Shown: positions 12,456-30,603 of the stretch, piece by piece
How positions within the stretch are numbered: the first letter of the stretch is position 1
How the letters are laid out: every line of letters starts with the position of its first letter
NCBI GenBank assembly: GCA_963785725.1
Contig: CAWAWS010000039.1
Location: 288,001 to 352,000, forward strand
Source of the DNA: an uncultured delta proteobacterium
GTDB taxonomy: Bacteria > Myxococcota_A > Polyangia > Palsa-1104
Direction of reading: 5' to 3'
Length of the DNA: 64,000 nt
Translations under genes and position numbers: made by a program
The notes under the pieces: generated by a model
The model's input: only the letters and a program-made list of their open reading frames with translations
Databases searched by the model: none
What the model was told of the DNA's origin: nothing

Positions 12456-13947
12456 GCTCCACCTTCCTCGACGCTCGCGGCACCATTCCCACGAGCGGCA
12501 ACAGCCCCAGCTGCTCGACGTCCGCGCGATCGTAGAGCCGGTCATCCAGCAGCGCCAACCCAATGGCCAGCGCGATCGCCAACAGGAGCGAGATGGCCAT
12601 GCCCGCGCCCGCGACCACACTGCGCGCCGGCTTGGCCGCGTGCGTGGGCGTGAACGCCGCATCGACCACCACCATCTGCGCCGTCCGTCCCGTCGCCGCG
12701 GCGCTCTCCACCATCGACGCCTTGAACTCCTTGTCCTGCAGCGATCCGAAGCGCTCACGCACCTCGGCCACCTCGCGATTCAGCCGCGTCCAGTCGGTCT
12801 CGAGCGCCACCACCGACGTCGCCACCGTCGACGGCTGCTCCGCCTGCCGCTTCTTCGCCTTGTACTGCACGATCTCGTCGTTGATGCGCTTGAGCTCGTT
12901 CTCGAGGGCCGCGCGATCGATCGTCCCCTCGTCCTCGGCCTTCGCTTCGGTCTTCTGCTGCGCCGCCGCGATGCTCGCCGACACGGCGTCCGTCGCCCGC
13001 TTGAGCTTGTCCTGCGCCAGCTTGTAACGCAGCTTGGCCGCGCGCACGTCGGGATGCTCCTCGGTGTACTGCGACTGCTTGTCCGCCAGATCCTTCTGCG
13101 CCGCGCGGAAATCGGAGTCGGCTTCGCCCTTGATCTGCAGCAGCACCGGATCGGCCTGGGCCTCGTTCTTCTTGCGCGCCACCGGCATGCCGAGCCGCTC
13201 TTGCAGGCGCGTCGCCTCGCGCTCGAGCGACGCCAGCGCCGGATCGGACGCCTTCGGCGCCGCGTTCTTGGCCGCGGCCGCGCGCACGGCCGTGCCCGCC
13301 TGATTGCCGCCGCCTTGCTGCGCCGCTTCCTTGGCGAACTCGGGATGCTTGGCCAAGAACTGCGCCAGCGCCGTCTCTTTTTCCTTCAGCTCGGCCTCGG
13401 TGTGGACGCGCTCGCCATCGAGGAAGTGCTTGGTGACCTCGGCCTGCAAGGCGTGCGTCTTCGAGTTCTCGGCGAGCAGCGCCTCGGCCAGCCGTGCCGT
13501 CACCTGCTGCACCGTCTTCGGATCGTCGCCGTCGAAGGCGAGCCCGAACGTGTCGCCGTCCTTGACGCGAAAGTTGATGTGCGCGCGCATCTCGTCGACG
13601 GCCTCGATGATGCCGCGATCCTCGACCATCGCCGGATAGAGCTTGTATTGCGCGATGATCTGCTCGAGCTGCGTGCGCGACAGCACCATTTCCTTCAGCC
13701 GCAGGCCGAGCTTGTTGGCGCGATCGCCCGAGTCCTCGCCGCCGACGAGATCCGACGAGCGGATGCCTTCGCGATAGAGGATGAGCGTCTCGGACTTGAA
13801 GACGCGCTTGCGCATCATGGCGTAGCCGACGGAGGCGCCGGTGCCGATGACGAAGAGGACGAGCGCCGCGCCTATGAAGCGGCGCGAGCGACCGAGGAGG
13901 GACAGCACGCGGTCGAGCCGATCGCGCGCGGTGCGGGGCTGGCTCAC
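12448..13947 (-). CDS. Polysaccharide co-polymerase (Wzz/Wzc N-terminal, GumC-like)
   Basis: TM - coiled coil - TM layout, YTEEHPDV motif, DDRLYDRADVEQLGLLPLVGMVP; GTG start at 13947 inferred. Confidence 0.85.
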   Translation of the reverse strand: MSQPRTARDRLDRVLSLLGRSRRFIGAALVLFVIGTGASVGYAMMRKRVFKSETLILYREGIRSSDLVGGEDSGDRANKLGLRLKEMVLSRTQLEQIIAQYKLYPAMVEDRGIIEAVDEMRAHINFRVKDGDTFGLAFDGDDPKTVQQVTARLAEALLAENSKTHALQAEVTKHFLDGERVHTEAELKEKETALAQFLAKHPEFAKEAAQQGGGNQAGTAVRAAAAKNAAPKASDPALASLEREATRLQERLGMPVARKKNEAQADPVLLQIKGEADSDFRAAQKDLADKQSQYTEEHPDVRAAKLRYKLAQDKLKRATDAVSASIAAAQQKTEAKAEDEGTIDRAALENELKRINDEIVQYKAKKRQAEQPSTVATSVVALETDWTRLNREVAEVRERFGSLQDKEFKASMVESAAATGRTAQMVVVDAAFTPTHAAKPARSVVAGAGMAISLLLAIALAIGLALLDDRLYDRADVEQLGLLPLVGMVPRASRKVEHV

Positions 13948-14049
13948 GAGGCCCACAGTGTAGCACGAGGATTCGCGATAGCCGCGCCCGCGCAGCGGCG
14001 ACGGCGGGAGGCGGCGGCGCACTGCGCGGCGGGGGCGCGGCAGCTCGCG

Positions 14050-14600
14050 CAGCGGCGGAATGCGCGGCGGCGGAATGCCCGCCAGGCCGCGCGGCGGCGG
14101 AATGCCCGCCAGGCCGCGCGGATTGCCCGAGAGCTCGCGCAGCGGCGGTTTGCGCCCTGACGAGTTGCGCGGCAGCAAGTCGAGCGGCGGCAGCAATAAG
14201 CCGCGCCAGGCCGTCCGGTCGCGCGCTGGGGGCGGCGATGAGTTGCGCGGCGGCAAGTCGAGCGGCGGCCGCGACGAGTCGTGTACCGACGAATTGCAGG
14301 GCAGCGAGTCGAGCGGCGGCCGGGATGAGTCGTGTGCTGACGAGCTGCGCAGCAGCGAGTCGAGCGGCGGCCGCAACGAGTCGTGTGCTGACGAGCTGCG
14401 CAGCAGCGAGTCGAGCGGCGGCAGCAACGAGTCGCGCCAGGCCGACGGGCTGCGTGCCGGAGGCGAGTCGCGCCGGCCGGACGAATTGGGTCGCGAAGGC
14501 AAGTCGAGTCGGGTGGACGAGTTGGGTCGCGAAGGCGAACTGCCTGGCAGCGGCGAACTGCCTGGCAGCGGCGAATTGTCGCACGTCGGCAGCGGCTAGC
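14050..14600. repeat. Composite tandem-repeat tract (27, 51 and 18 bp units), probably non-coding
   Basis: 51-bp units at 14277, 14328, 14379 (GAGTCGTGTGCTGACGAGCTGCGCAGCAGCGAGTCGAGCGGCGGC...); GGAATGCCCGCCAGGCCGCGCGG x2; GGCGAACTGCCTGGCAGC x2. Confidence 0.85.
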
Positions 14601-14930: not shown

Positions 14931-16481
14931 CTACTTCGCGTCGTCGGACTTCCCCTTACGCCGCTTACTCGACGCTTTTCCGCCCGTTTTCGTCGATCGA
15001 CCGCCATCAACAGGCGGCTCGCCTGTGCCGATGCCACCCGTGCTTTTCGCGCCTACGCCGCTCTCTGCGCTGCTCGCGCGGTTACCGCCGTCCGAGCTGA
15101 TGACCCCACGGCCGTCGTCACCCTCGACAGCGGTGCTATCTGCGGCGGCGTCACTCCCGCCTGCCGCTCGACCATTGTCGGGCGCTCCGACGGACACCCC
15201 TCGTTTGGCGCCGCCGTTCCCGACCGAGCCGCCACCGTGCTCGGCTGAGCCGCCGGCACGCTGCCCGACCGAGCCGCCACCGTTCCCGGCTGAGCCGCCG
15301 CCGCCGTTCCCGACGGAGCCGCCGCTGTTTCGGCCCGACCCGCTGCCGCCGTCTCCGCCGCGGCCGCGCGAATCCTGCTGCAGCCGAATGTCGAGCGCGC
15401 CCACGTTGTCGCCGACAAACGGCCGCATCGCGCCCAACGCACGCAGTCCCAGCCGTTGCACATCCACCGTGCGGTAGATGCGATCGTCGAAGGCACCCAC
15501 TGCGATCATCGCCAGCGGCAGCGAGAAGAAGAACATCGCCACCGCGACGAACGCCAACAGCTTGTGCCGACTCACGCCCGCCGACGCCACGCGCCCCTGA
15601 TCCGTCAGCTCGAAGCGCAGCCCCAGCTGTTTACGCTCGATCTGCGAGCGCATGTAGATTCGCGTACGCCGTTTTTGCGCGGCCTCGAGCTGCCGCTCCA
15701 GCTTCGGCATGCCTTGCTCGAGGTCGATCGCTTGCACGAGCAGCTGCGCTGTCTCCGCCGTCGACTTGGCGCTCGCGCGCAGGAACTGCTTGGCGACGAG
15801 CGCCGCTTGCGCCTTCTCGAGCACCGCTTTGGCGTCGGCCACTTCGTCGTCGGCGGCAATGAGCGCGCTGTCGGCTTCGTCCTGGCGCGAGGTCGCTTCC
15901 GCCTCGGTGACGAGCGCGCCCAAGTCGCGCACGACGTCGTAAACCTGGCGCGGATCGTGGCCTTGATAGCTGATGGCGACGCGCGCTTCACGGCCGTCGG
16001 GTCCGGCGGCGCCTTCGATGAAGTAATTGCGCCAGACCTCGATGTTCAGATCGTCGCGCATCTCTTCGACGGCGAGCGACGGATCGCGCTTGGTCAGGCC
16101 GGGATAGAGGCCACGCGCGCGGATGACCGAGAGTAGGCGCGACGTCGAAAAGCAGATGTCGGCGACATATTCGCGCAGGCGGCCGTTGGGCGACGGCCCC
16201 GTCGCCGGATCGACGTCCCCTTCGACGACACGAAAGGCGATGCGCGACTCGAACACTTGCTGTTTGCGCGCGCGATAGCCGACAACGGTCGCGGTCGCGA
16301 GCAGCGTCAAGGCGAGCGTCAGCCACGGCCGCGCGGCCGCGCGCAGGAGGAGTCGGCGCAGCTCGTCGAGAACGCCGCCGGACGCGCGCTCGTCGGCATC
16401 CCAGCCGTGCGGCGCGCTCGCGGCCAATGGTTTAACCACCGGCCGCGGCGGATGCGGCCGGTTCGCGCGCGGCTCAATCAT
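14931..16481 (-). CDS. Second polysaccharide co-polymerase-like protein with Gly-rich C-terminal extension
   Basis: Paralogous motifs (AVEEMRDDLNI, AFDDRIYRTVDVQRLGL); tail built from about 21-bp GGGS-type repeats; start at MIEP (16481) inferred. Confidence 0.75.
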   Translation of the reverse strand: MIEPRANRPHPPRPVVKPLAASAPHGWDADERASGGVLDELRRLLLRAAARPWLTLALTLLATATVVGYRARKQQVFESRIAFRVVEGDVDPATGPSPNGRLREYVADICFSTSRLLSVIRARGLYPGLTKRDPSLAVEEMRDDLNIEVWRNYFIEGAAGPDGREARVAISYQGHDPRQVYDVVRDLGALVTEAEATSRQDEADSALIAADDEVADAKAVLEKAQAALVAKQFLRASAKSTAETAQLLVQAIDLEQGMPKLERQLEAAQKRRTRIYMRSQIERKQLGLRFELTDQGRVASAGVSRHKLLAFVAVAMFFFSLPLAMIAVGAFDDRIYRTVDVQRLGLRALGAMRPFVGDNVGALDIRLQQDSRGRGGDGGSGSGRNSGGSVGNGGGGSAGNGGGSVGQRAGGSAEHGGGSVGNGGAKRGVSVGAPDNGRAAGGSDAAADSTAVEGDDGRGVISSDGGNRASSAESGVGAKSTGGIGTGEPPVDGGRSTKTGGKASSKRRKGKSDDAK

Positions 16482-17282
16482 GTGGCCCCTCGTGGCGGCG
16501 GGCTCGCGCTGCGGCGCGGGAATCGCGGGGCAGGCTCGGCTGCAATGGTTTAACCATTGCCCGCCGCCAATCGCGCCCGCCAAATAGCCGATCGCGATTC
16601 TGGATCGAGCGCGCAAAGCGAGCATCGGCCGGGAGTCCGGCCGCGGGGAGGCTCAACTGGCTTAGCCAGTCGAGGCGCGCTTGCGCCCTGTCGATCGATG
16701 CTGAATCAGCGTCGATCCTGCGCTGGCGAAGGCAGTGCAGGATCGTGCGCGCTGATTTAGACGCGTGGTCCGACCCGCCCGCGCGCGCCGCGACTTCGGC
16801 GTGTCCGGCACGTGAGGCGCGCGCCTCACGTAAGGCTCGGTCCAACTGTGCCGCGCGCGCCTCACGCGGAACGCCCGCGGCCAAGGGTTTAACCATTGGC
16901 CGCAACGACGCCGAACGAGCCGTGCGTCGCGCACCCATCGCCGATCGAGCGCGTTTGGCGCGCGCCGGGCGGTGAGTGTCGGGCAGCCGCTGCATGCGCA
17001 ATGGTTCAACCATTACCCGCGGCGACTGCGCACCCGCAGTGCGCGGCGCAACCAATCGACGTTCGACGGTGCTGGGCGCTGCCGCGAGATCGATGTCGGG
17101 CAGGCGCTGCGGCAGGATTGGTTTAACCATTGTCCACAGCGACCGCGCACTGGCATTGGGCAGCGCAAGTTTCCGACGTTCGACGGCGATCGGCGCGTGC
17201 TGCGAAACCAATGTCTGCCGACCGGTTCGCACACAAGGGTTTAACCATCGCCTGCAGCGACGGCGCGCGAGCCCCTCGATGC

Positions 17283-19364
17283 TTAGCCATGTGGCCCTCC
17301 GCAGCGCGCGCGCCAGGCGTCGTACAGCCGGCCGCGCGCCGCTTCCCAGGCCGCCGGATCTTCAGGCCACGCCGCCGCGCCGGCGCCCTCGTCGAGCGCG
17401 CGCGGCACGAGCTCCCGCAGCAGTGCGGCCGCGACATCCGCCGCGCCGCACTGCTCGAGCGCGCGCAACAGCAAGCGGTCCTGCAGCCCGCGTCGCAGCG
17501 TCTTCAGGCGCAACGAAGGCCACGGCCCGTCGACCGCCGCCGCCTCGGCCGACGCGCGCACCGTCTGCGCTTGCGCTGCGTGCGCCGGCTCGGCGTCGTT
17601 CGACCGCACTTTGGACGGCGCGCCCGACCGGTCCGACGACGCGCTCGGATTGGTCACACCTATCGATGACTTCGGGTCCGTCGCAGCGGCCACCGACGAA
17701 GACGTGTCGCCCGGGGCTTGTGGGGACGCGCCCTGCGGCGGCGGATAGAAGAGCACGCCGTCGCCGTTGCCCCAGTCGGGATTGCGCAGGCGCTTGCGCC
17801 GCTGGTCATACGTGAGCGGATCGGTGAGCACGTCAGTCGGTCCGCCGCCATTATACCGGTCGGCGAAGTAAGTGCCTTCCCAGGCGTACCAAAGCTCGAC
17901 GCCATAACGCGCGGCGATCCAACCCCAAGTCCGCAGCGACGGGCCGGCGGCGTCGATGACCATACTGCCCGCGGCCGGCGGCGTGCCGTTGTAGGTCCAG
18001 CGATGCGGCGGTCGCGACGCCGGCCCGATGAAGACGTCGATCGCGTCGCCGAAATCGCGATTGGGCGGCGCCGTCACCGCGCGCAACAGCTTGTCGTGCC
18101 GTCCGATACGCTCGCCGGCGGCGCGTGCCGACGCGCGTTCAGCCGCCGAATGCGGCTCGTCGATCGGAATCGTAAACGCCGTCTGCGCCCGCGTCGCGAA
18201 TTGGTTTAACCATTGCTGGACGTCGTGCTGCGCGCTCGCCACCGTCGAGAGATCGATCTCGACCGGCCAATAGCGCGTCCCCCGCATGAGTGCTTGCCGC
18301 GCGACAAATCGGTCGAGCGGCAGATCGGACGCGAGGTAGGCGCCGTGCGCACGGGCCAACGCGTGGTAGCGCTCTTCGAGCGGCAGGAGCGCGCGATCGT
18401 CGTCGGGCAGGCCGTGCGCGCGCGCGATCTCGGCCGGCATGTACCAGATCCAGACGAGCGGCTCCTCGTCGACGGCGACCTGCACCGCCTCGACGGTAAG
18501 CTCGACGGGAAACGTGCGCGTGCCGACGATGAGCGTGCCGCGATGCAGGCCCGGCGCGGCGTCGGCGGCGATGGCGACGTCGAACAGCGCGTCCCCGGTC
18601 ACAGGCTGCGACGAAGGACGCAGCGGATCGGGGTAAACGCCGGCGCCGCGACTCGGCCCATACATGGTCGTCGACGGTTCGCGGAGGTTCAACCATTGCA
18701 CGGCGAACGCGTCGACGTGCACCGCCGCGACATCGACCGCGCGGCCGGTCGGCGATTGCATCGGCGATACGGACGCTCGCTGCGTCGGTGCCGCCGCCTT
18801 CATCAACGGCTGCTGCGTGGGCGGCGACGCCCGTGTCGACCACGGCGCCTCGGTCGTTGGTGCGGTTGACGCCGCGCGTGTCGACGTTCGCGGCGACGCC
18901 GGTTTCGCGAACGGCGCTTCGGTCCCGGGCGTGGTTGACGCTGCCCTCGGCAACGTTCGCGGCGTCGACGTGCCCGCGTTCTGCGCTGCGGATGACGGTC
19001 CGTTCGGGGGCCGCGCGGCTGGTTGCGATTGCGGCGCCTCGCTCGTCGAAGGGGTGGGCGGCGGCTCGGTCGCAAACGTCAGCGAGCTCGCGGCGTCGTG
19101 CGTGCGCGTCAGGACCTGCAGCGCCAGCGTCTCGCCGCGACCGCCGCGCAATCGCACGCGCGTCCCGTCGAACAGTGGCGACGTCGCGGGCAGCGGCTCG
19201 TCGCGACGTAATCGCGTGTCCTCGGTCACGATCGCCAGCTCGGCGCCGCCCGCGGCGCGCGCGTCGGCGGTGCGGCCGTCGTCGCGAGGTTGCGCCGTGC
19301 GCGCATCACGCCGGCCGCAGCCGCTCAGCGCGACGAACGCAGCGACGACGAGAATGCGCGTCAT
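17283..19364 (-). CDS. Lipoprotein with C-terminal DUF4091 (glycoside hydrolase-associated) domain and low-complexity insertions
   Basis: Lipobox LSGC; NGDGVLFYP...PSLRLKTLRRGLQD; Pro/Ala/Thr/Ser-rich inserts at about 18740-19080 and 17550-17740. Confidence 0.75.
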   Translation of the reverse strand: MTRILVVAAFVALSGCGRRDARTAQPRDDGRTADARAAGGAELAIVTEDTRLRRDEPLPATSPLFDGTRVRLRGGRGETLALQVLTRTHDAASSLTFATEPPPTPSTSEAPQSQPAARPPNGPSSAAQNAGTSTPRTLPRAASTTPGTEAPFAKPASPRTSTRAASTAPTTEAPWSTRASPPTQQPLMKAAAPTQRASVSPMQSPTGRAVDVAAVHVDAFAVQWLNLREPSTTMYGPSRGAGVYPDPLRPSSQPVTGDALFDVAIAADAAPGLHRGTLIVGTRTFPVELTVEAVQVAVDEEPLVWIWYMPAEIARAHGLPDDDRALLPLEERYHALARAHGAYLASDLPLDRFVARQALMRGTRYWPVEIDLSTVASAQHDVQQWLNQFATRAQTAFTIPIDEPHSAAERASARAAGERIGRHDKLLRAVTAPPNRDFGDAIDVFIGPASRPPHRWTYNGTPPAAGSMVIDAAGPSLRTWGWIAARYGVELWYAWEGTYFADRYNGGGPTDVLTDPLTYDQRRKRLRNPDWGNGDGVLFYPPPQGASPQAPGDTSSSVAAATDPKSSIGVTNPSASSDRSGAPSKVRSNDAEPAHAAQAQTVRASAEAAAVDGPWPSLRLKTLRRGLQDRLLLRALEQCGAADVAAALLRELVPRALDEGAGAAAWPEDPAAWEAARGRLYDAWRARCGGPHG

Positions 19365-19400
19365 CGCGCGACAGCTCCAAGTGACCTAGACCGTGAGACC

Positions 19401-19610
19401 GAGTCGCGAATCTGCGAGGCCGACAGTGATGTCGACCAGTCGCGCGTCTGCGAGGCCGACAGTGATGCCGACCAGTCGCGAATCTGCGAGGCCGATAGTG
19501 ATGCCGACGAGTCGCGACTTCGCGCGGCCCACATCGATGCGGGCGAGTCGCGATTTTGCGAGCCCAACATCGATGCCGATGAGTCGCGATCCTGCGGGGC
19601 CAATAGCAGC
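19401..19610. repeat. Intergenic 36-bp tandem repeat, about six degenerate copies
   Basis: Units at 19401, 19437, 19473, 19509, 19545, 19581: (G/C)AGTCGCGAATCTGCGAGGCCGACAGTGATGCCGAC. Confidence 0.85.
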
Positions 19611-19748
19611 GTTGACGCCGACGTCGACACTGAATGCGCATGCGAGTGTGACTGCGATGCGGACGCCGATGCCCATGGCCATGTTCGCTCGCTCGAATCG
19701 TCATTCCGACGACGGCTACAGGACCGGACGCGCCAACTGTGGCTGCTG

Positions 19749-20921
19749 CTAGCGATACGCACGGACCGCGTCCTCGAGCACGGCGTGCAGCCGCGCCGCG
19801 CTCTCCGCCCAGCCGCCGCGCGCGCCAATCGCGGCCACCTCGCTCGCGTCGTAATCGATCGCGACCTGCCGCTCCAGCGCGGCCGCCAGCGACGGTGCGT
19901 TCATTGGTTCAACCATTTCGCCCAACGCCGGCGAGGTCATGACATCGGGAATGCCGCCGACGCGCGTCGCGACCGCGCGCCGACCGCAGGCGAACGCCTC
20001 GAGCAGCACATTCGGCGTCCCTTCGTTCCAGCTCGGCAGCACGAAGAGGTCGCACGCCGCCAGCCAGCGCGGCACTTCCGCGAGCGGCCGCGCGCCGACG
20101 AGCTGCGCCTGCGGGCCGATGCGCGCCGCCATCGCCGCGCACTCCGCCCGCGCCGCGCCGTCGCCGACGAGCACGAGCGAGAGGTCGGGATGACGCGGCG
20201 CCAGCGTGGCAAAGGCGTCGAGCAGCTCGATGAGCCCCTTATCGCGCACGAGCCGACCGACGTAGACGATGACACGACCTTCCGGCGGCAGACCCAACTC
20301 GACGCGCGCTTGCCGGCGATCGCGCGGCTGAAACAGCGTAGCGTCGACGCCGTTGGCCACGATGGCGATGCGATCGCGCGCTACGCCCAGCGTCGCCAGC
20401 GAATCGGCGAGCGGTCGCGAAACGGCGACGGCACGCGTCGCCCGCGGCAAGAGCGCGCGCAGCTGCCGCCGCACCGACGGCAGCTTGGCGACGATATTGA
20501 CGTCCGATCCGTGCACCTTCACCACCGACGGCAGCCGCAGCGCCTCCGCCAGCATCACCGTGGCCGCACCGTCGGGATAGGCCCACGCGCCGAGCAGCAC
20601 ATCAGCCCGCCGGCGCCGCCACGCCGCTCCCAACAGCGACGCCGCGTACAGCGCCGCCGACGCGCCCGGCAGCTTGGGCGCCATCAAGTAGCGCGGGTGC
20701 GAAATGGTTAAACCATTGACGCTCTCCGTCGCTGGCACGGCCGCCAAACGACCGGCCGCGCTCCACTTGCGGAACATCCCGGCGCCCGGAAACCAGGGAA
20801 TGACCCCCAGCACCTCGACGTCGCAGAGCTTGCCGAGCGCGGTGAACTGCTGCTGATTGAAGGGCGACCAGAGCGGCTCGACCGGATTGGGAAACAGCCG
20901 CGTGAGGACGACGACGCGCAT
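19749..20921 (-). CDS. Glycosyltransferase family 4 (TuaC-like)
   Basis: AWAYPDG, KVHGSDVN, NGVD, PSWNEGTPNVLLEA (EX7E). Confidence 0.92.
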   Translation of the reverse strand: MRVVVLTRLFPNPVEPLWSPFNQQQFTALGKLCDVEVLGVIPWFPGAGMFRKWSAAGRLAAVPATESVNGLTISHPRYLMAPKLPGASAALYAASLLGAAWRRRRADVLLGAWAYPDGAATVMLAEALRLPSVVKVHGSDVNIVAKLPSVRRQLRALLPRATRAVAVSRPLADSLATLGVARDRIAIVANGVDATLFQPRDRRQARVELGLPPEGRVIVYVGRLVRDKGLIELLDAFATLAPRHPDLSLVLVGDGAARAECAAMAARIGPQAQLVGARPLAEVPRWLAACDLFVLPSWNEGTPNVLLEAFACGRRAVATRVGGIPDVMTSPALGEMVEPMNAPSLAAALERQVAIDYDASEVAAIGARGGWAESAARLHAVLEDAVRAYR

Positions 20922-20962
20922 TCGTCCATCGATCTTACACGACGGGGCATTACACTCTCGAC

Positions 20963-21613
20963 ATGCTCAGCCTCTATCTGGTTCGCCACGGCCAGACCGA
21001 CTATTCGGCGCACAATCGTTTTTGCGGCAGCGTAGATCCGCCGCTCAACGACGTCGGGCACGCCATGGCCGAGGCGCTCGGCAAGCGCTACGGCGCCGGC
21101 CCTACGCCGGGTGAGCGCTGGAACGCGATTTACGCCAGCCAAATGCTGCGCGCGCGTCAGACCGCCGAGCCGACGGCGCGCGGCGCAGGAATTGGTTTAA
21201 CCATTGACGATGGTCTGCGCGAGATCGCCTATGGTGAGTGGGAGGGCCGGCCCGAGGCTGATGTCCAGCGCGACGATCCCGGGCGTTTCGCGGCCTGGGC
21301 GGCGCATCCCGGTCGTATCGCGCCGCCGGGCGGCGAGAGCGGTTACGCCATCGCCGCGCGCGCCATCGCCGCCGTCGAGCGCATCCGCGCCGCGCACAAA
21401 GACGGCAAGGTTCTCGTCGTCTCGCACAAAGCGACGCTTCGCGTGCTCGTCTGCGCGCTGATGGGCGTCGACGTCGATCTCTTCCGCACGCGCATCGCGC
21501 AGAAGACGTGCGCCGTGTCGATCATCGACTTCAAGCCCACGGGTCCGCTGCTGCAGGTGCTCGGCGACACCAGCCATTTGCCGCCCGAGCTTCTCGCGGG
21601 CGACGGCACCTGA
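20963..21613 (+). CDS. Histidine phosphatase (phosphoglycerate mutase family)
   Basis: LVRHGQT, RARQTA, LREIAYGEWEG, VVSH. Confidence 0.92.
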   Translation: MLSLYLVRHGQTDYSAHNRFCGSVDPPLNDVGHAMAEALGKRYGAGPTPGERWNAIYASQMLRARQTAEPTARGAGIGLTIDDGLREIAYGEWEGRPEADVQRDDPGRFAAWAAHPGRIAPPGGESGYAIAARAIAAVERIRAAHKDGKVLVVSHKATLRVLVCALMGVDVDLFRTRIAQKTCAVSIIDFKPTGPLLQVLGDTSHLPPELLAGDGT

Positions 21614-21636
21614 ACGCCGCGCACGACAGCGCGCGA

Positions 21637-22973
21637 ATGGTTGAGCCAATCGCCAAGCCGCGCCTGACACTGATTCCGCTCGTCGCCGCCACCTACTTCA
21701 TGGTGTCGGGCGGCCCGTACGGGCTCGAGGAGATCGTGGCCGGCGCCGGTTATCGCGGCGCGATCATCATCCTGCTCGTGACCCCGCTCGTGTGGTCGTT
21801 GCCGACGACGCTGATGGTCGGCGAGCTGGCCGCCGCGCTGCCCGAGGAGGGTGGCTATTACGCGTGGGTCAAGCGCGCGCTCGGTCGCTTCTGGGGTTTT
21901 CAAGAGGCGTGGCTCTCGCTCGTCGCCAGCATCTTCGACATGGCGATCTACCCGACGCTGTTCACGCTCTATCTCGGCCACTTGTGGCCCGCGCTCGCGG
22001 TCGGCCACCGCCCGCTCGTCGCCGGCGCGCTCATGATCTTCGTCTGTGGCGCCTGGAACCTGCGCGACGTGCGCGCCATCGGCTGGAGCGCCGTGGCGTT
22101 GACGGTAGCGCTCTTGGCGCCGTTCGCCGTGCTCGCCGCCAGCGCTTGGCTCGCGCCGACGGCCGCTCTTGCTCCGTCGCTCGCGTCGACGGCGTCGGCA
22201 AGCGGTGCCGCTCCGCCGTCGCTGGCGTCGGCGGGATTGTGGAGCGGCGTCCTCGTCGCCATGTGGAACTACATGGGCTGGGACAACGCCTCCACCGTCG
22301 CCGGCGAAGTCCACCGCCCGCAGCGAACCTACCCGCTGGCGATGCTGCTCGCCGTCGCCTTGGTCGCGCTCACCTACGTCATCCCCGTCGCTGCCGTCGC
22401 CCACGTCGACCTCGATCCGCGCGATTGGTCGACGGGTGGCTGGGTCGACGTCGCCCGCACCATCGGTGGCCCCTGGCTCGGCCGCGCCATCGCCGTCGGC
22501 GGCGTCCTGTGCGGCATCGGCATGTTCAACGCGCTCATCCTTTCTTACTCGCGCGTTCCCGTCGCCCTCGCCGAAGACGGCTTCTTGCCGCGCCAGTTCG
22601 CGCAGCGTTTGCCGTCGGGCGCGCCCTGGCTCGCCGTCGTCACCTGCTGCGTCGCCTACACGGCCTGCCTGGAAATTGGCTTCGTGCGCCTCATCGAGCT
22701 CGACGTGCTCGTCTACGGCCTCAGCCTGCTGCTCGAGTTCGTGTCGCTGGTCGCGCTGCGCATTCGCGAGCCGAAATTGGTTAAACCATTTCGCGTCCCC
22801 GGTGGCGTCATCGGCGCAGCGCTGTTGGGCGTGCCGCCGATGGCGCTCATCGTCGTGGCGCTAGTCAGCGGTTGTCACGAGCAAGCGGGCCGCTTGCCGA
22901 CGCTGGCTCTCGGCGCCATCCTGGTAGGAGCGGGCCCGTTGGTGTATTGGATTGGCGTTCGAAGGAGAAGCTG

Positions 22974-22974
<1 letters not shown>
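21637..22974 (+). CDS. APC-family amino acid/polyamine permease
   Basis: FMVSGGPYGLE, LPEEGGYYAWV, MWNYMGWDNAST; ATG at 21637 (MVEPIAK) inferred. Confidence 0.9.
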
Positions 22975-23248
<274 letters not shown>

Positions 23249-23249
<1 letters not shown>

Positions 23250-25114
23250 TGCGCGCGGCTGGTGACATCTTGCTCGTCTCGACGTACGAGCTTGGTCACC
23301 AGCCGCTGCACCTTGCGTCGCCGCTGGCGTTCCTCGAGCGCGATGGCTATCGGCCGCGCGCGGTCGATGTCTCCGTCGAGCCGCTCGACGACGAGGCGAT
23401 CCGGCGGGCGCGCTTCGTCGCCGTCGCCGTTCCGATGCACACGGCGCTGCGGTTGGGCGCGGAGGTGGGGGCGCGCGTCAAGGCGCTGAATCCGACGGCG
23501 CACCTCTGCTACTTCGGTCTCTACGCGCCGCTCAATCGTGAATATTTGCGGCAGCACGGCGCAGACTCGGTTCTCGGCGGCGAGTACGAAGCGGCGTTGG
23601 TCGCGGTCGTCCGCGCGGCGGAATTGGTTAAACCAATTGCCGTGCTCGTCGCAGCCGTTGCGGCCGCGTTGCCCGTAGCGCCGGAGCCGGCCCACGCGAG
23701 CGAAATCGGCGCCGCTGAATTGGTCAAACCAATTTCAGCATTGGTTGAACCAATTCCGGGACGAGCGGGCGCGGCTCCACCGATTGCAGCGAGCGAAATC
23801 GGTGCGGCAGAATTGGTTAAACCAATTGTCGCAATGGTTGAACCAATTCCAACGGCGCGTGTCAGCTCAGGTCCGCCGATTCCAGGGGGCGAAAGCGGCG
23901 CGGCAGAATTGGTTAAACCACTCGCCGGCGAACGAACGACGGCGGTCCGCTCGGCAGCTACAGGCACGGTCGGCGGGATTGAGCTGGGCGAGCCCTGTGC
24001 TGCCGGACGATCGGACGATGCGGGCTCGGCCGAGAAGGCCGCCGACCGTCCAGGCGAATTGGTTAAACCAATTTCGGAAATGGTTGAACCAATCGTGCTC
24101 GAGCGGTTGGACTTTCCCGTGCCGTCGCGAGCGCGGCTGCCGCTGCTGTCCCGATATGCGCGGCTCGAAGTCGACGGCGAGGCGCGGCTCGCGGGCTATG
24201 CCGAGGCGAGTCGCGGCTGCCTGCACCATTGTCGACATTGCCCGATTCCGCCCGTGTACGAAGGGCGCTTTTTCGTCGTTCCCATCGAGACGGTGGTCGC
24301 CGATGTCGCGCAGCAAGTGGCCGCCGGCGCTCGTCACGTCACGCTCGGCGACCCCGATTTCTTCAACGGGCCGGGCCACGCCATGGCGGTGGCGCGCGCG
24401 ATCCACGCCGCACATCCGTCGCTGACGTTCGATGTCACGATCAAGGTCGAGCACATCTTGCGGCGGCGGGCGCTGTTCGGTGAGCTGGCAACGCTCGGCT
24501 GTGCCTTCGTCGTTAGCGCCGTCGAGTCGACGTCAGACACGGTCTTGCGGCTGCTCGACAAGGGCCACACGCGCGCCGATCTCGACGAGGCGCTCGCCAT
24601 CCTCGACGCAGCCGGTCTGCCGCTGCGGCCGACGTGGTTGCCGTTCACGCCTTGGACGACGCTCGACGACTACCTCGACATGCTCGATTGGATCGAGTCG
24701 CACGCGATGATCGATCACGTCGATCTCGTGCAGCTGGCGGTGCGGCTGCTGATTCCGCCGGGCTCGAAGCTGCTGTCGCTGCCGGAGATGCAAGCGGTGC
24801 TCGGTCCGCTCGAGCCCGAGAAGCTGAGCTACGCCTGGACGCATCCCGATCCGCGCATGGATCGGCTGGCGCACGACGTCTTCAGCGCCGTGGCCGAGGG
24901 GGCGCATTTTGCCGACGTGCGCGCGCTGGCGCGAGCGGCGGCGGCGCTGCCGCAGCTGTCGACGACGGCGATCGTGCACAAGCGCGTTCGCGGCCGGCCG
25001 CCGCGCCTGAGCGAATCCTGGTTCTGTTGAGCGGAACCCACAGCGAGCCAGTTCGGCGCGCTAAAGACTTCAGCCGTTGACCCGCTCCCGGAATTGGTTA
25101 AACCAATTCCGTAG
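23249..25114 (+). CDS. CUAEP-tail radical SAM selenoprotein (B12-binding-like N-domain + radical SAM; UGA 25028-25030 read as Sec)
   Basis: LVSTYELGHQP N-terminus, ASRGCLHHCRHC CxxxCxxC; after SESWFC-TGA the frame continues AEPTASQFG...ELVKPIP-TAG(25114). Confidence 0.85.
25042..25062 (+). promoter_or_regulatory. Putative bacterial SECIS hairpin
   Basis: AGCG-A-GCC[AGTTC]GGC-G-CGCT stem starting 11 nt after the UGA, with GU in the apical loop. Confidence 0.6.
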
Positions 25115-25190
25115 TGCGCTTAGTGCCCGTCGCGTGGGCCACATCTGCCCGACTCATTTTCGATCATCTCTGCGCCCGCAGATACATCGG

Positions 25191-25260
25191 GGCATCTTCA
25201 TGCACGATCAGCGTGCGAAGGATCAGGCATCTTCATTCACGATCAGCGTGGGAAGGCTCA
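25191..25260. repeat. 35-bp tandem duplication between convergent genes
   Basis: GGCATCTTCATGCACGATCAGCGTGCGAAGGATCA / GGCATCTTCATTCACGATCAGCGTGGGAAGGCTCA. Confidence 0.85.
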
Positions 25261-25369
25261 TTCACGAGGGTCGCTGCGATGGATCACGGCGCAAGGTCTG
25301 ACGGTGCTCGGCAGTTGGTCGAACTGGTCGGCTCGAGCGTAGGAATGGTTTAACCAATCCGATAAATGG

Positions 25370-26641
25370 TTAAACCAATTTTGGGAGCAGCGGGGTTATG
25401 TCGAGCTCGAGGTGGCGATGGGCCTGACGCAGCGCCGCTTCGACCTCTGCAGGCGTCTCGCCGCGCGCGAAAATGAAGCCGAGGTAGCTCGCGCCCTCGG
25501 GCAGGGGCACGAGGACTTCGCCCGGCCGCGCAGAGATGGTCACGTCTTCGATGAGCGGCACTCGGCGCGCTTCGTCGACGCTGCGAACCTCGGCCAAGAT
25601 GCCGCCGGACGGAATCGGAATCATCATGACGCCCGCCGCGCCCTGTCGCTCGAGCGCGCCCAGATCGTGCCCGAGCGCGGCGCGAATGACGATCTCCTCC
25701 AGCGAAGTCGCGCCCAAACCGAACCGCAACGTGCGCGCGCACAGGCCGCCGATCGAGCGCGCCGCCACCTCGATGACGACGGGGCCAGCCGGCGACAGCC
25801 GCAGCTCGGCGTGAATCGGACCGTTGGTTAAACCAATCGCGACTGCCGCCTGCGCGGCCTCCGTCTCGATCGCGCGCTGCAACGATGGCGCGTGGCGCGA
25901 CGGCGTCACATAGATCGTCTCCTCGAAGAAGGGGCCGTCGAGCGGATCGGGTTTGTCGAACAGCGCCAGCGTTGTCAGCTCACCGTCGCGCAAGATCCCT
26001 TCCAGCGCCACCTCGGCGCCAGGCACGAAATCCTCGACGAGGATACGCTGCCCGTCCGGATCTTCGACCGCGCGCAAGGCCGGCGTCTGCAGCAGCGCGC
26101 GCAACCGCCGCCACGCGACGACGAGCTCGGCCGCCGAGTTGGCGCGCATGACGCCGCGGCTCCCCGAGCACAGCAGCGGCTTGATGACGACAGGCCAGCG
26201 ATTGGTTAAACCATTGGCGACCACGTCGGGCGAATCCTGCGCGTCGAAGACGGCGCTGGCCGGGTTGGCGACGCCCGCCCGCGACAACGCCGCGCGCATG
26301 AGCCGCTTGTTGCGCGCCGTGGCGGCCGCGCCGACGGAGTTGCCGCGCAGACCCAGTCGTGCCGCGGCGCGCGCCGCGATATCGGCTGTCGGCTCGTCGG
26401 TGGCGATGATGGCGTCGAATGGTTTAACCATTGCCTCGCGCACGATCGCGTCCGTCGTTTCCTCTTCGTGGCGGAACTCGAGCGGCAGCGATCCGCCGAA
26501 CGCAGCGCGAGGCCAAATCTCGGCCAGCTCGTGGCAACGATTGGTACCGAGCACCGCTTCGACCCCGACGCGGTCGGCGGCGCGCAGGAAATCGTCACCC
26601 CGGTAGGAAGTGGTCGACGACAGAACGAGGACTCGACCCAT
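25370..26641 (-). CDS. ATP-grasp domain protein (L-amino-acid ligase-like)
   Basis: RNKRLMR, PVVIKP..SGSRGV, LVEDFVPGAE, HAELR, VIEVAARSIGG. Confidence 0.9.
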   Translation of the reverse strand: MGRVLVLSSTTSYRGDDFLRAADRVGVEAVLGTNRCHELAEIWPRAAFGGSLPLEFRHEEETTDAIVREAMVKPFDAIIATDEPTADIAARAAARLGLRGNSVGAAATARNKRLMRAALSRAGVANPASAVFDAQDSPDVVANGLTNRWPVVIKPLLCSGSRGVMRANSAAELVVAWRRLRALLQTPALRAVEDPDGQRILVEDFVPGAEVALEGILRDGELTTLALFDKPDPLDGPFFEETIYVTPSRHAPSLQRAIETEAAQAAVAIGLTNGPIHAELRLSPAGPVVIEVAARSIGGLCARTLRFGLGATSLEEIVIRAALGHDLGALERQGAAGVMMIPIPSGGILAEVRSVDEARRVPLIEDVTISARPGEVLVPLPEGASYLGFIFARGETPAEVEAALRQAHRHLELDITPLLPKLV

Positions 26642-26674
26642 GGATTATCGCCAATAATGTGATAACAGATCCGC

Positions 26675-27415
26675 GTGCTGTCCATCGTCGTTGCCATTCT
26701 GTCGGGTGTCTTCGTCGGCGCGCTGTTCCGATTGACCCACCTCGTCCACTCGTTCGCCGGGACCATCCTGCCCGGCGTGCTGGCGACGATCGTGGCGGCG
26801 ATCTTCCTGTTCCGGCGCGTCAGTGCATTGGTCAATCCAGTCGTCGAGGAGGCGCAGCGGCATCTGAAGGGCGGCCGCGCCGAGCTGGCGCTGAAGTCGC
26901 TGCGCGACGCGCTGCGTTTCGGCCGCTGGCACCCGATGCTGGAGCCGCAATTGCGTACACAAATCGGCCTGTTGCTCTATCAGCAGGGCGATATGGACGC
27001 GGCCATCACCGAGCTCGAGCGCGGCGCGTCGCGGCCCTGGGAATCGCCGGCGTTTTTGGGCTGCGCGTACTACAAGAAGCGCGACGACGCGAAGATGACC
27101 GCGGCGTTCGAGAAGGCCGTCAAAGCGGGCGAAAAAGAGGGCCTGTGCTGGACGGTCTACGCTTGGTGTCTGGCGTCGCGGAGCAAGAAGGCGGAAGCGA
27201 CCGCGGTGTTGAAGCGCGCCATCGCGAAGCTGCCGGCGGACGAGCGGTTGCAGGGCAACTTGGAGCTCGTCGAGGCAGGCAAGAAGATGAAGGTCGTGCC
27301 CTACGGTGACCGCTGGGCGCATTTTGGGCTCGACGGCGCCAAGCCCGGCGTGCCGAAGGCGATGCGCGGCTTCGCGCAGCGCCCGGGTTTCCGTCAGCGC
27401 CCGACGCGACGGTAG
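26675..27415 (+). CDS. Membrane-anchored TPR-like hypothetical protein
   Basis: Two N-terminal TM helices followed by helical TPR-like repeats. Confidence 0.7.
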   Translation: MLSIVVAILSGVFVGALFRLTHLVHSFAGTILPGVLATIVAAIFLFRRVSALVNPVVEEAQRHLKGGRAELALKSLRDALRFGRWHPMLEPQLRTQIGLLLYQQGDMDAAITELERGASRPWESPAFLGCAYYKKRDDAKMTAAFEKAVKAGEKEGLCWTVYAWCLASRSKKAEATAVLKRAIAKLPADERLQGNLELVEAGKKMKVVPYGDRWAHFGLDGAKPGVPKAMRGFAQRPGFRQRPTRR

Positions 27416-27958
27416 CTCCGTTCGTTTCGTAGCCGCGCATTTCGTCGACGCCTCAGCCTTCGACGGGATGCCGAACGATGCCTGGCCGCTTACGCGTCGA
27501 CAGGGTTTGACCCGGCAAGCCTGCTTGCCGATTGGTTAAACCAATTTGCTGAGCGGCTGGCGGCGAGCGCCGTCCAGCAGCCAACCTGCCCTGAATTCGT
27601 ACGCCGGCCCAATCCGCGCATGGATAATGGTTAAACCAATTCTAGTTGGACTCGGCTGCATGCCGCGAGCCGCGCGCTCCACGTTTGAATAATTGGTTAA
27701 ACCAATATCGGTGGATTCGGGTGCGTGACCGGACCGCTGCGCGTGTTCGTACGAGTAAACTGGGTAACCATTCGACAGTGAAGCTGGACGTCGACCGGCT
27801 CCGCGTTCGCTACCGAATGGGCGATGAATCCTTGCGGCGACGCTGCCCGCGTACGCGTGGAGAATTGGTTTAACCATTCTCGCCGAGTCGAAGCCGTCTC
27901 GTTTATGCGCGGACGCGGAGAGTTGGTTTAGCCAATGGATGGCGACGTCGGCCGCTGC

Positions 27959-29977
27959 TTACGCCGTGCCGAGTGCGCTCCAGAGCGGCGCCGTCCGGCG
28001 TGTCACCAGGCCGAGCTCCTGCATCAGGGCGTAGACCTTGGCCAGCGAATCGAGTGTCACGCGGCGATAGGCGCGATTGTTCGTGAACGCCTCGGCGACG
28101 ACGGACGCGGGAATGTCGAACTCCCGGATCAGCGCTGGCGGCGGTCGTAGCATCAGCTCGGCCGTGATGCGGAGAATGACGGGGGCCGTTGCCGCCAGCG
28201 CCATCCGTTTTAACGGATGCAAGCGCGGCACATACTCGCGCAGGAAGCTGCGCGCGAAGCATAGGTGGCGCGCCTCCTCGGTGACGTGGATTTGCGAGAT
28301 CCTCCGCAATAACGGATGGAGGTTGGGCTGGCCTGAAAGCGCCAGGCGCTGCGCGTGATCGATGGGATCTTCGCCGCCAAGCACGAACACGAAGAACAGC
28401 TCGGGAAAGCGCGCGGCCAAGCCGGCGACGCGCGTGCCCAGCCAGGCGAGCCGCGGCGTGAGGCCGCTGATGTCGAAGCGGCTGCGGCGGACGAACTCGG
28501 AGAACATCATCGAGTGGTGCGATTCCTCGATGAGCTCGTGATAGGCGTAGCGATGCTCGGGTGACTGCTCGGAGCGCGAGAGGATGAACAGCAAGAGGCC
28601 GCGGCTGAGGACGTTTTCGAACTGCACGCCGACCTTCATGAACGTCGCGACGCGATAGAGGCCGATGCGCGCGCGTTCCGCCGGCGGCTTGGCGCGGTAC
28701 CACGCGGTACCACCGAGCGGATCGTCGGGGCCGAGCTCCCAGCGCGAGTCGTCGTCGCGGACGGCGAAGTCGGGCGCGTCCCAGTCGATGTCGCGGAAGG
28801 CTTCGTAGCGTTTGCTGACCGATTGTCGCGACAGGCGCATCAACAGGGCGTCGTAGGCCTCGCGCGGTGCGCGGTGCTCTTCGTCGGCGACCGTGGGATC
28901 GGCAACGGATGGAGTGGTGGCGGAGTCGCGGGCCGAATCTCGAGCGACGGCCGGGTGACGCTCGTTCGGCGCGGCGGCGACGGACGCATCGCGCGGACCC
29001 GCAGATGACGCGGCGGCGACGGACGCATCGCGCGGAGCCGCAGATGGCGCGGCGACGACCGACGCATCGCGCGGAGCCGCAGATGACGAGGCGGCGACGG
29101 ACGCATCGCGCGGAGCCGCAAATAACGTGGCATCGACCGACGTATCCCGCCGAGCCGGCGATGGCGTGGTGTCGACCGACGTATCTCGCCGAGCCGCAGA
29201 TGACGTGGCGTCGGCCGGCGTGTCTCGCCGAGCTGGAGATGTTGCTGTGGCGACGGACGTGTCCCGCCGAGCCGCAGGTGACGTGGCATCAACCGACGCA
29301 TCCCGCGGACCCGCAGACGACGCGGCGTTGACGGACGTATCCCGAGCCGCCGATGGCGCTGTGTGAACAGGCGCATCCCGGCGAGTTGCAGACGGCGTGG
29401 CGTGAACGGCCTTCCTATGGGTTGCGGCAGCGACGGACGTATCGTGAGGTGTCGCAGCTGGACCGGCGGCGAGGTGCATATCGCGAATGGCAGTGGCGGA
29501 CGGCGCGTCGACGCGCATATCGCGATGAGTTGCGGATAACGGCGCATCGACGTGCACATCGCGACGAGTCGCAGATTGCGCGGAGTCGAAGGACGCATCG
29601 CGAGTGGCCACGGAAGAGGGGGCGTCGAGATGTGTATCGCGAGTGGCCGCGGAAGAGGGGGCGTCGAGATGTGTATCGGGAGTGGCCGCGGAAGAGGGGG
29701 CGTCGAGATGTGTATCGCGAGTGGCCGCGGAAGAGGGGGCGTCGAGATGTGTATCGCGAGTGGCCGCGGAAGACGGGGCGTCGACGTCTGTATCGCGAGT
29801 GGCCGCGGAACCCGGAGCGCTGACGGCAGCCGCGGCCGCGGATTCGGCCTCGGTGGCGGCTGCCGTGCCGTCGCCGGCGCCAGCGCGCCCGGCCGTGCCC
29901 GGCGCGCCATCGGCGGGCAGGTCGCGCATCGCCGCGGAAGACTCGTCGTTGCCGGTACGATCGACGGGGAGCTTCAT
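27959..29977 (-). CDS. AurF-like diiron oxygenase with long repetitive N-terminal extension
   Basis: IEESHHSMMF, GEDPID, HVTEEARHLCFA; ATG 29977 overlaps the TetR stop (ATGA) and follows a GGAGGT RBS. Confidence 0.85.
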   Translation of the reverse strand: MKLPVDRTGNDESSAAMRDLPADGAPGTAGRAGAGDGTAAATEAESAAAAAVSAPGSAATRDTDVDAPSSAATRDTHLDAPSSAATRDTHLDAPSSAATPDTHLDAPSSAATRDTHLDAPSSVATRDASFDSAQSATRRDVHVDAPLSATHRDMRVDAPSATAIRDMHLAAGPAATPHDTSVAAATHRKAVHATPSATRRDAPVHTAPSAARDTSVNAASSAGPRDASVDATSPAARRDTSVATATSPARRDTPADATSSAARRDTSVDTTPSPARRDTSVDATLFAAPRDASVAASSSAAPRDASVVAAPSAAPRDASVAAASSAGPRDASVAAAPNERHPAVARDSARDSATTPSVADPTVADEEHRAPREAYDALLMRLSRQSVSKRYEAFRDIDWDAPDFAVRDDDSRWELGPDDPLGGTAWYRAKPPAERARIGLYRVATFMKVGVQFENVLSRGLLLFILSRSEQSPEHRYAYHELIEESHHSMMFSEFVRRSRFDISGLTPRLAWLGTRVAGLAARFPELFFVFVLGGEDPIDHAQRLALSGQPNLHPLLRRISQIHVTEEARHLCFARSFLREYVPRLHPLKRMALAATAPVILRITAELMLRPPPALIREFDIPASVVAEAFTNNRAYRRVTLDSLAKVYALMQELGLVTRRTAPLWSALGTA
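28970..29810 (-). repeat. 39-bp (13 aa) coding tandem repeat, about 20 degenerate copies
   Basis: PSSAATRDTHLDA / SSAAPRDASVAAA-type units; near-identical copies at about 29600-29800. Confidence 0.9.
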
Positions 29978-30585
29978 GGTTGACCTCCGGGAAAAGCGAA
30001 CGTGGTGAGCAGCTTCATCCCCTGCAGAACATCGTCGGCGCGCGCCCGCGACGGTGTGACCAGCAGTCGATCGAGCGCCAACCCCTGCAGCAGCGCGAAC
30101 GTGAAGCGCGGCGCGATCTCGAAGAACGGATTGGTCACGTCCGGCGGCGGAAACACCTGCCGGAACGTGCGCTCGACCTGCATCGCCGCGCGGCTCCCGA
30201 GCTCGCGCACGCGCCGGCCCAGCGTCGGATCGGTGCGCCCGGCCACCGCCAGCTCGAGCCACGCGTAAAACGGCTCGCTGCCGATCATCTTCCACAGCAG
30301 GTCGATGGCGGCGACGGCGCGATCGGCCGTCGGCGGCAGTCGCGCGAACGTGTCGAGGAACTCCTGGTTGCGCCGTTCGAACAGATGCTCGACGGCCGCC
30401 AGCACGAGCTCCTCCTTCGTCGGAAAATGATGGAGCTGCGCGCCGCGCGACACGCCCGCGCGCTCCGCGACAGTCGAGGTCGTCAGGTGCGCGTAGCCGA
30501 GCTCGATGAGGCAGTCGATCGTCGCGTCGAGTAGGCGCGATTGCGTCTCGGCGCTGCGTTCCTCTTGGGTGCGGCGTGCCTTCAC
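29974..30585 (-). CDS. TetR-family transcriptional regulator
   Basis: RLLDATIDCLIELGY...VAERAGVSRGAQLHHFPTKEEL; GTG start at 30585 inferred. Confidence 0.92.
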   Translation of the reverse strand: MKARRTQEERSAETQSRLLDATIDCLIELGYAHLTTSTVAERAGVSRGAQLHHFPTKEELVLAAVEHLFERRNQEFLDTFARLPPTADRAVAAIDLLWKMIGSEPFYAWLELAVAGRTDPTLGRRVRELGSRAAMQVERTFRQVFPPPDVTNPFFEIAPRFTFALLQGLALDRLLVTPSRARADDVLQGMKLLTTFAFPGGQP

Positions 30586-30603
30586 CGGACGATCCGTAAC
30601 GCC

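Follow-up and report, generated by a model that had tools for sequence, protein, structure and literature searches.

Introduction

Bacterial repressors are usually pictured as acting on few operators, placed at promoters. One of the closest described systems for the DNA analyzed here is PdhR of Escherichia coli, a GntR-type protein with a winged helix-turn-helix (HTH) and an FCD domain. PdhR controls its own operon, and its operator is an A/T-flanked palindrome of 15-17 bp. This PdhR box is given as (A)ATTGGTnnnACCAAT(T), and 35 targets are reported, identified by genomic systematic evolution of ligands by exponential enrichment (gSELEX) and scattered genome-wide in E. coli (PMC7660256). For the FadR subfamily, the reported consensus is TKGT/ACMA with a 3-nt gap between GT and AC (PMC4494728). 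Atu1419, a VanR-type GntR protein of Agrobacterium fabrum, is described as an FCD-family tetrameric repressor of a catabolic region (PMC7797058). In this study, we analyzed a palindrome, TGGTTNAACCA, which recurs in a 64,000-nucleotide stretch of DNA, the window, from an uncultured delta proteobacterium (G000:C39:288001-352000; the assembly, G000, has 8.89 Mb in 47 contigs and 68% GC). Homologues of proteins of this assembly are recorded in their sources as stemming from Polyangia metagenome-assembled genomes. An original prediction, made from the letters of the window, had taken these palindromes for a centromere-like or chromosome-organizing array.

We found that the palindrome has the shape of a PdhR or FadR operator and a distribution unlike that of PdhR, with about 150 sites in four islands and essentially none elsewhere. 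It also differs from the PdhR box in that its middle triplet is fixed as T-N-A and that numerous sites are located at the ends of genes and within coding sequence. Our preferred reading, with a probability of about 0.5, is that the operators of one FadR/PdhR-type GntR repressor have proliferated, forming cooperative pairs that probably loop and likely control whole islands. In contrast to the usual picture, the number of operators rose here from about five in one genus to above 110 perfect copies in G000, confined to the four islands. If the candidate regulator binds them, the islands would be a natural example of how an array of sites for a transcription factor expands to the scale of a domain. 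Related genomes still hold intermediate stages, which makes the birth of regulons or of bacterial chromatin-like domains testable.

Results and Discussion

The Palindrome Is Concentrated in Four Islands

An exact string count placed 26 copies of TGGTTNAACCA in the window, the first at 16428 and the last at 27876. None was found in the remaining 52 kb of the window, and 100 dinucleotide-preserving shuffles gave 0. At up to one mismatch, the window holds 33 cores, namely the 26 exact ones, six inside the same interval (16885, 17237, 18685, 21638, 23721, and 27924), and one beyond it (9516). This confirms the counts of the original prediction, which were 26 exact and six one-mismatch copies within 16428-27934 and no exact copy elsewhere in the window. 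A matrix of all 137 genomic copies defined the full motif as the 15-mer A(96%)-W(94%)-TGGTT-N-AACCA-W-T and held no information outside it; the extended form proposed earlier was close to this 15-mer but not identical. Perfect matches account for 23 of the 28 window sites found at up to one mismatch to the 15-mer.

Across the assembly, the 137 exact cores fall into four clusters, islands I1 to I4, and one singleton (Table 1). The islands together span about 85 kb and contain 112 of the 113 perfect 15-mers. One-mismatch 15-mers numbered 38 in the islands versus 0 outside, and two-mismatch 15-mers 23 versus 11. The whole-genome scan, which the original prediction had called for, thus showed that the motif is not evenly spread. 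The sole perfect 15-mer off the islands (C20:273117-273131) precedes the called start of an aconitase-family gene by 42 bp and may be a conventional single operator. Among the matches listed in a literature search with the letters of the motif, only unrelated eukaryotic or other topics appeared.

Site-bearing pieces of the window (for example, 23521-23816, 23948-24465, and 23475-23719) were covered at 90-99% likeness by Logan contigs from four soil metagenome runs of three studies. This read check used contigs only, and uncovered parts carry no weight either way. No contig ran across the whole of 22800-26800, and contig breaks tended to fall at site pairs. One type of loose end continued into sequence downstream of the start of the candidate regulator described below, which is expected if assemblers confuse site pairs. 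Since orthologous sites are present in the independent genomes of relatives, the sites are no assembly artefact.

A GntR+FCD Regulator Is the Probable Binder

The window contains no GntR or ParB gene, as had been stated in the original prediction, and the trans-encoded dimeric-type binder that it proposed is still the best reading. The candidate is encoded in I1, the largest island, in which the gene at G000:C7:367773-368570 encodes a 265-aa GntR+FCD protein (P0001). The protein matches the GntR family PF00392 with an E value of 1.5e-21 (76.2 bits, cut-off 27) and the FCD family PF07729 with 26.7 bits (cut-off 24.3). An AlphaFold2 (AF2) model (predicted local distance difference test score, pLDDT, 85.9) consists of a winged HTH, formed by three helices and a beta wing at residues 19-78, and a helical domain with helices from residue 81 to 254. 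The best fold matches of this model in Foldseek were E. coli FadR chains, including the DNA complex 1hw1 (TMt 0.74-0.79). By sequence, the nearest solved chains were an Rv0494/FadR chimera, PdhR, and FadR.

Judged from the model, E. coli FadR (fadB operator; 1hw1 and 1h9t) is the best structural match, and the regulator appears to share the FadR-type helical effector domain. The setting also resembles that of FadR, as the ancestral island holds acyl-CoA enzymes. Unlike these likenesses, the identity to FadR is 18-20%, and to our knowledge dense phased arrays are no known feature of FadR. The identity to solved PdhR is low as well, with an E value of 2.6e-10 over the HTH only; source annotations label the myxobacterial homologues PdhR-like. 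The matrix of the 137 copies, A-W-TGGT-TNA-ACCA-W-T, has the operator shape published for the PdhR box and the FadR subfamily (PMC7660256, PMC4494728). This agrees with the GntR/FadR shape recognized in the original prediction.

The ATG of the regulator gene lies inside one site (A-ATG-GTT-AAA-CCA-AT, read as MVKPI), with another site located 21 bp upstream. This pair at the start codon recurs in all seven orthologues whose 5' end is assembled (G000-G004, G010, and G012, with a spacing of 20 bp in G012). From the promoter site pair, the regulator is predicted to be autoregulated. Orthologues with at least 50% identity were present in G000-G004, G010, G011, and G012, and all of these genomes except G011 have 5-113 perfect sites each. 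Genomes of the family without an orthologue have 0 perfect sites, except for G007 (four sites; 51% complete). We consider it quite probable that the GntR+FCD regulator is the binder of the palindrome. A Pfam search at E <= 1 with five unannotated island proteins and the small open reading frames (ORFs) after the regulator gave no usable match.

All orthologues carry an Arg/Lys-rich C-terminal tail (P0001 residues 245-265), and in genera g1 and g9 the regulator has a basic N-terminal extension after MVKPI. Both the tail and the extension lie outside the GntR and FCD Pfam matches.

Site Spacing and the Proposed Mechanism

The distance between neighboring sites was exactly 21 bp in 32 of 147 gaps and 20 or 22 bp in none, and the spacer sequences differ. 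At spacings of 27-222 bp, weak helical phasing was seen (R 0.30-0.39 at 10.5-10.7 bp). We did not count this phasing as evidence because eight different periods had been tried and the tandem copies depend on one another. Local tandem repeats with units of 96, 117, 43, and 21 bp carry sites. Within pairs, 46 of 96 variable positions were complementary versus 41.3 +/- 4.6 in shuffles (P 0.18), and the W positions inside one site vary independently of each other. These results fit recognition by a protein and not pairing of nucleic acids. A hairpin formed by paired sites in RNA or DNA was rejected, as the pairs do not covary to stay complementary.

In the preferred reading, the repressor encoded in I1, on another contig than the window, would bind the palindromes as high-affinity operators. 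Dimers on adjacent sites would cooperate on one helix face, as the exact 21-bp spacing suggests, and distant sites would probably be bridged by looping. Auxiliary sites at gene ends and in coding regions would raise the local occupancy. Whole islands would then be under one repression, which a small-molecule ligand of the FCD domain would lift. The auxiliary operators of lac (O2 inside lacZ, and O3) strengthen repression through looping; lac has three operators in contrast to 25-60 per island here, where looping is what we infer. The Atu1419 tetramer offers a precedent for binding of a dimer of dimers at two operators, and, unlike the island-wide control predicted here, Atu1419 represses three genes (PMC7797058).

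Selection on the Sites

Codon alignment with orthologues showed that at least five coding sites of the window arose by in-place substitution. The ATP-grasp gene contains three of these five, and the histidine-phosphatase and permease genes contain one each. One of the five, in the ATP-grasp gene, has a 3-codon gap beside it. The codons used at these sites make up small shares of their families in this genome: TTA 0.8% of Leu, GTT 2.5% of Val, CCA 2.1% of Pro, and GGT 7.4% of Gly codons. The eight sites of the radical SAM gene lie in an insertion present in G000 only and missing from 10 of 10 relatives having the gene. This in-frame insertion of about 152 codons separates the N-terminal domain from the radical SAM core and includes a 96-bp tandem repeat.

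By our own gene caller, 57-60 of 150 sites lie in ORFs, with 26, 19, and 12 of 57 called coding sites in the three reading frames. A GC-frame test gave a same-phase coding signal on both flanks at 8 of 136 sites, and the true coding share lies between these figures. Coding status was verified by orthologue alignment for 13 window sites. Of 37 sites in G002 and G003 that could be aligned to G000, 30 are kept in G000 at up to one mismatch; the 60-bp flanks of the kept sites are 43-84% identical, and the differences fall at W and N positions. The remaining seven are no sites in G000, which indicates site turnover. The sites are under purifying selection at the DNA level and are written into coding sequence against codon bias.

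These results bear on whether the copies could have multiplied without adaptive value, by tandem duplication, slippage, or other copying, and persisted where they do no harm. The site-bearing tandem repeats, the expanded intergenic gaps in I1 and I3, the radical SAM insertion confined to G000, and a copy number far higher in G000 alone would all be expected from such a process. We consider it very improbable, since the copies share neither conserved flanks nor an element body, and the five substitution-made sites use the rarest codons without a change in length. In addition, the 30 kept orthologous sites evolve more slowly than the diverging flanks between species, and the 21-bp spacing is strict despite differing spacers.

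A second possibility is that the arrays are decoys that buffer free regulator and set a sharp induction threshold, with the titration of DnaA by datA as the model. Decoys need neither clustering in islands nor codon-costly placement in enzymes, and conservation is seen at the level of individual orthologous sites. We therefore regard this explanation as quite improbable, even with many predicted high-affinity sites away from promoters, tandem arrays at exactly 21 bp, and a regulator predicted to be autoregulated on its side.

History of the Islands in Relatives

Perfect 15-mers were counted in 42 genomes across the order. A search of genome contigs for loci related to the window gave four close relatives only, which matched genomes of this set. 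There were 113 in G000, 31 in G012, 27 in G002, 21 in G001, 17 in G003, 10 in G004, five in G010, and four in G007. The other seven genomes of the family had 0, and in the other two families one copy each was found in 2 of 27 genomes. In genus g7, perfect sites number only about five, the regulator promoter pair among them. In G010, which is 100% complete, the island region contains the promoter pair and few other sites only. The simplest history from these low counts is that an ordinary autoregulated operator came first and proliferation later, and the ancestral state was likely such an operator.

The left half of I1 encodes RidA, an enoyl-CoA hydratase, an acyl-CoA dehydrogenase, an old yellow enzyme (OYE)-like flavoenzyme, an acyl-CoA ligase, a creatininase-family protein, a GMC oxidoreductase, the regulator, and a pyridoxal phosphate (PLP) enzyme. 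From this Pfam content, the left part of I1 (C7:352940-362772) looks like a tryptophan/kynurenine and aromatic acyl-CoA catabolic cluster. Under the preferred reading, the palindrome would have originated as the autoregulated operator of this local cluster (tryptophan/kynurenine and acyl-CoA enzymes), would then have spread across the neighborhood, and would have founded the new window island in G000. Tryptophan dioxygenase and kynureninase genes lie just upstream of I1. On G007:C60, site pairs separate the genes of the catabolic cluster.

Contigs of G012, a member of another genus, show synteny with both I1 and I2, and on them 20-bp-spaced pairs occupy most short intergenic gaps. In G002, I1 is found at C2:1.62-1.65 Mb, and the orthologue of I3, with about nine sites, at C2:1.705-1.720 Mb, about 70 kb from I1. 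The window locus had 0 sites at up to two mismatches in seven orthologous stretches of relatives (G001, G002, G003, G004, G010, and G012). The window island is new in this genome and thus does not mark a conserved place on the chromosome.

Coding sequence makes up a fraction of 0.67 of I1 and 0.70 of I3 versus 0.84 +/- 0.06 of random 25-kb segments. The median intergenic gap is 342 bp in I1 and 511 bp in I3 versus 102 bp as the mean of medians of the random segments. Island gaps in G000 are swollen by tandem repeats. Two tandem arrays in I1 gaps are free of the palindrome (C7:383327-384039, with units of about 55-110 bp, and C7:364215-364930, 61 bp), and the matching gaps of G002 measure 0-100 bp. 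A PhaR-family segment (C7:384157-385624) is inverted relative to G002 and G003. It is flanked on the right by site arrays, which also occur within it, and on the left by a tandem-repeat array. Such rearrangement may be promoted by the palindromes.

Placement of the Sites and Weighing of the Preferred Reading

Placement was scored with our own crude hexamer-based gene caller. Coding sequence contains 0.95 sites per kb, tandem gaps 3.6 (11 of 25 occupied), convergent gaps 5.6 (14 of 16 occupied), and divergent gaps 1.8 (6 of 15 occupied). The earlier claim that the array ignores gene structure holds insofar as sites lie inside genes, but their density is lower in coding sequence than in gaps. 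Possible roles of the sites are those of auxiliary or looping operators, of roadblocks, or of structural elements; alternatively, the sites may just accumulate where they are least harmful.

Several points count against the preferred reading, and placement is the main one, as it is the reverse of a simple promoter-operator pattern. In G012, pairs also sit in tiny gaps between convergent genes. G011 has the regulator gene, situated on the edge of a contig of 1.8 kb, and 0 sites at up to one mismatch. The island genes are mixed and include housekeeping uvrD, tatA, rluD-like, thyA, folA, and htrA genes, which makes one switchable repression hard to rationalize. The looping or tetramer step is purely inferred, and the roles of the regulator in binding, expression, and ligand response are predictions from sequence.

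Repetitive extragenic palindromes (REP) and bacterial interspersed mosaic elements (BIME) are short palindromes, often paired, which favor gaps between convergent genes. The sites described here are likewise densest in convergent gaps. They differ from REP/BIME in having no element body or flanks, in not being dispersed, and in that some were made inside genes by substitution; in addition, the sites are predicted to mediate the autoregulation of a matching transcription factor. A mobile element like REP or a miniature inverted-repeat transposable element (MITE) was rejected, as no body or flanks were found, the islands are not genome-wide, and the five coding sites were formed with no change in length.

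A sigma-70 promoter scan of window positions 16000-28500 found 0 sites versus 0.6 expected, and the same range contains two terminator-like hairpins versus 8.6 expected from shuffles. The shortage of hairpins would fit protein roadblocks or insulators at gene ends, where bound pairs would block read-through and antisense transcription and replace intrinsic terminators. The occupation of nearly all convergent island gaps and, in G012, the pairs between convergent stop codons and between operon genes point the same way. This explanation does not account for the confinement to four islands, for sites far inside genes, or for arrays of four to six sites, and the rest of the genome does without such sites. 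We consider it improbable.

The remainder of I1 and I2 encodes a Ser/Thr kinase, a pseudouridine synthase, SLT-LysM, TatA, PhaR, a ketoacyl synthase, a lipid A acyltransferase-like protein, UvrD, HtrA, and MoxR. Such functionally mixed genes would be compatible with locus-specific structuring of the nucleoid, in which the same GntR protein coats the islands to shape DNA and regulation is secondary. The sites favor promoter-less places and gene interiors, and about 173 of them (at up to two mismatches) lie in 85 kb versus 12 in the other 8.8 Mb. Islands 1-3 share one neighborhood in G002 (C2:1.62-1.72 Mb), and the Arg/Lys-rich tail is common to all orthologues. We nevertheless consider a primarily structural role unlikely: the very few sites in G010 mean that such a role is neither essential nor ancient, congeners are without the window island, and a complete FCD effector domain has been retained. 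A literature search returned no relevant GntR nucleoid organizer by title or abstract.

The large nucleoprotein or silencing domain put forward in the original prediction is possible and close to our preferred reading of proliferated operators. A more far-reaching version, which we offer tentatively and with doubt, is that a FadR-type metabolite sensor has turned into a locus-specific chromatin-like protein. Its more than 170 sites would coat the four islands, kept by selection that is strong enough for enzymes to be recoded with the rarest codons. They would build compacted domains switchable by a ligand, or a hub between islands, with the ability to spread to new loci, as at the window locus of G000.

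The Islands and Chromosome Partition

The sites of ParB (parS), RacA (ram), MatP (matS), Noc, and SlmA are clustered and mark a chromosomal region independent of promoters. The palindromes of this study are also clustered and partly gene-independent, and on this ground they could form a centromere-like or ParB-type partition array or a loading array for structural maintenance of chromosomes (SMC) complexes. Unlike those systems, they have another motif and protein family, and their location is neither near dnaA nor conserved. The original prediction, which had suggested segregation or SMC loading and had pointed to a multi-copy parS cluster in Myxococcus xanthus, rightly set the motif apart from canonical parS. 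It had also named the absence of canonical parS as a check, and canonical parS is present in the genome: one perfect copy lies at C16:16102, and three near-perfect copies lie within 90 bp at C19:123687-123777, 9 kb from dnaA (C19:114k). The only ParB_N match in the genome is at C6:333k. Thus, canonical parS and ParB are on other contigs than the islands. On C2 of G002, dnaA is at 0.65 Mb, the window orthologue at 1.04 Mb, and I1 at 1.62-1.65 Mb, which places the conserved islands about 1 Mb from dnaA. The GC skew of C7, C33, C39, C19, and C6 was too noisy for placement of the origin or terminus. As the islands lie off the dnaA locus, one of them is lineage-specific and missing from all relatives checked, and the canonical partition site is elsewhere, the centromere reading is weak. 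With a motif type and a candidate binder of the GntR/FadR and not the ParB kind, we consider it extremely improbable, and this part of the original prediction is not supported.

Features of the Window Island and Its Surroundings

The features of the islands and of the window are listed in Table 1.

Table 1. Islands in the assembly (contig coordinates) and site-bearing features of the window island (window positions).
Feature	Position	Strand	Details
Island I1	C7:356795-389461		55 exact cores
Island I2	C7:421119-434690		23 exact cores
Island I3	C33:40549-63747		32 exact cores
Island I4 (window)	C39:304428-315866		26 exact cores
Singleton	C20:273119		1 exact core
Window island I4	16426..27938	.	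26 exact 11-mer cores; 28 15-mer sites at <=1 mismatch
Non-coding gap	16426..17251	.	6 cores (16428, 16546, 16885, 17002, 17119, 17237; 16885 and 17237 with 1 mismatch)
Site in 693-aa ORF without Pfam family	18200..18214	.	no orthologue in relatives' syntenic stretch
Two sites (19903, 20703) within GT4 glycosyltransferase gene 19749-20921(-)	19903..20717	.	
Site in histidine-phosphatase gene	21191..21205	+	substitutions only: AGL-PV/EV/PL-T.. (relatives) to AGIGLTI (G000)
Site in amino-acid permease gene	22776..22790	+	substitutions only: EPxLPRPF to EPKLVKPF
Eight sites in radical SAM gene 23246-25030	23623..24093	+	all in one frame, ELVKPI/MVEPI
Single site 25093 and 21-bp-spaced pair 25344/25365	25093..25379	.	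gap between convergent radical SAM and ATP-grasp genes
Three sites in ATP-grasp L-amino-acid-ligase gene 25370-26641(-)	25823..26432	-	in place, ancestral codons
Four sites and one 1-mismatch core	27531..27938	.	gap between convergent TPR gene and AurF-like gene

The cores of the leftmost non-coding gap lie partly within a tandem repeat of about 117 bp. This site-rich gap also contains a dispersed repeat of about 180 bp (window 16580-16765), unrelated to the palindrome, with copies of 82-93% identity on at least eight other contigs (C22, C14, C15, C26, C6, C7, C36, and C37).

A TetR-family gene (29974-30690) lies just outside the right edge of I4. Within 27959-30690, an AurF-like arylamine N-oxygenase of 294 aa was called by our own caller, and the open frame extends to 884 aa. 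The AurF-like, TetR, ATP-grasp ligase, and radical SAM genes may form a small biosynthetic cluster. To the left of I4, window positions 11231-14502 encode a GNVR-domain protein and an AAA_31/ParA-like P-loop protein. These genes resemble polysaccharide co-polymerase/tyrosine-kinase pairs, and by its context the P-loop protein is not a partition ParA.

For annotation, some caution is needed with the palindromes, as they yield MVKPI-type starts and ELVKPI-type protein repeats and break short-read assemblies. GC-rich tandem repeats (27-51 bp units at 14041-14575, and 36 bp at 19397-19601) were also observed in or near large ORFs without Pfam families.

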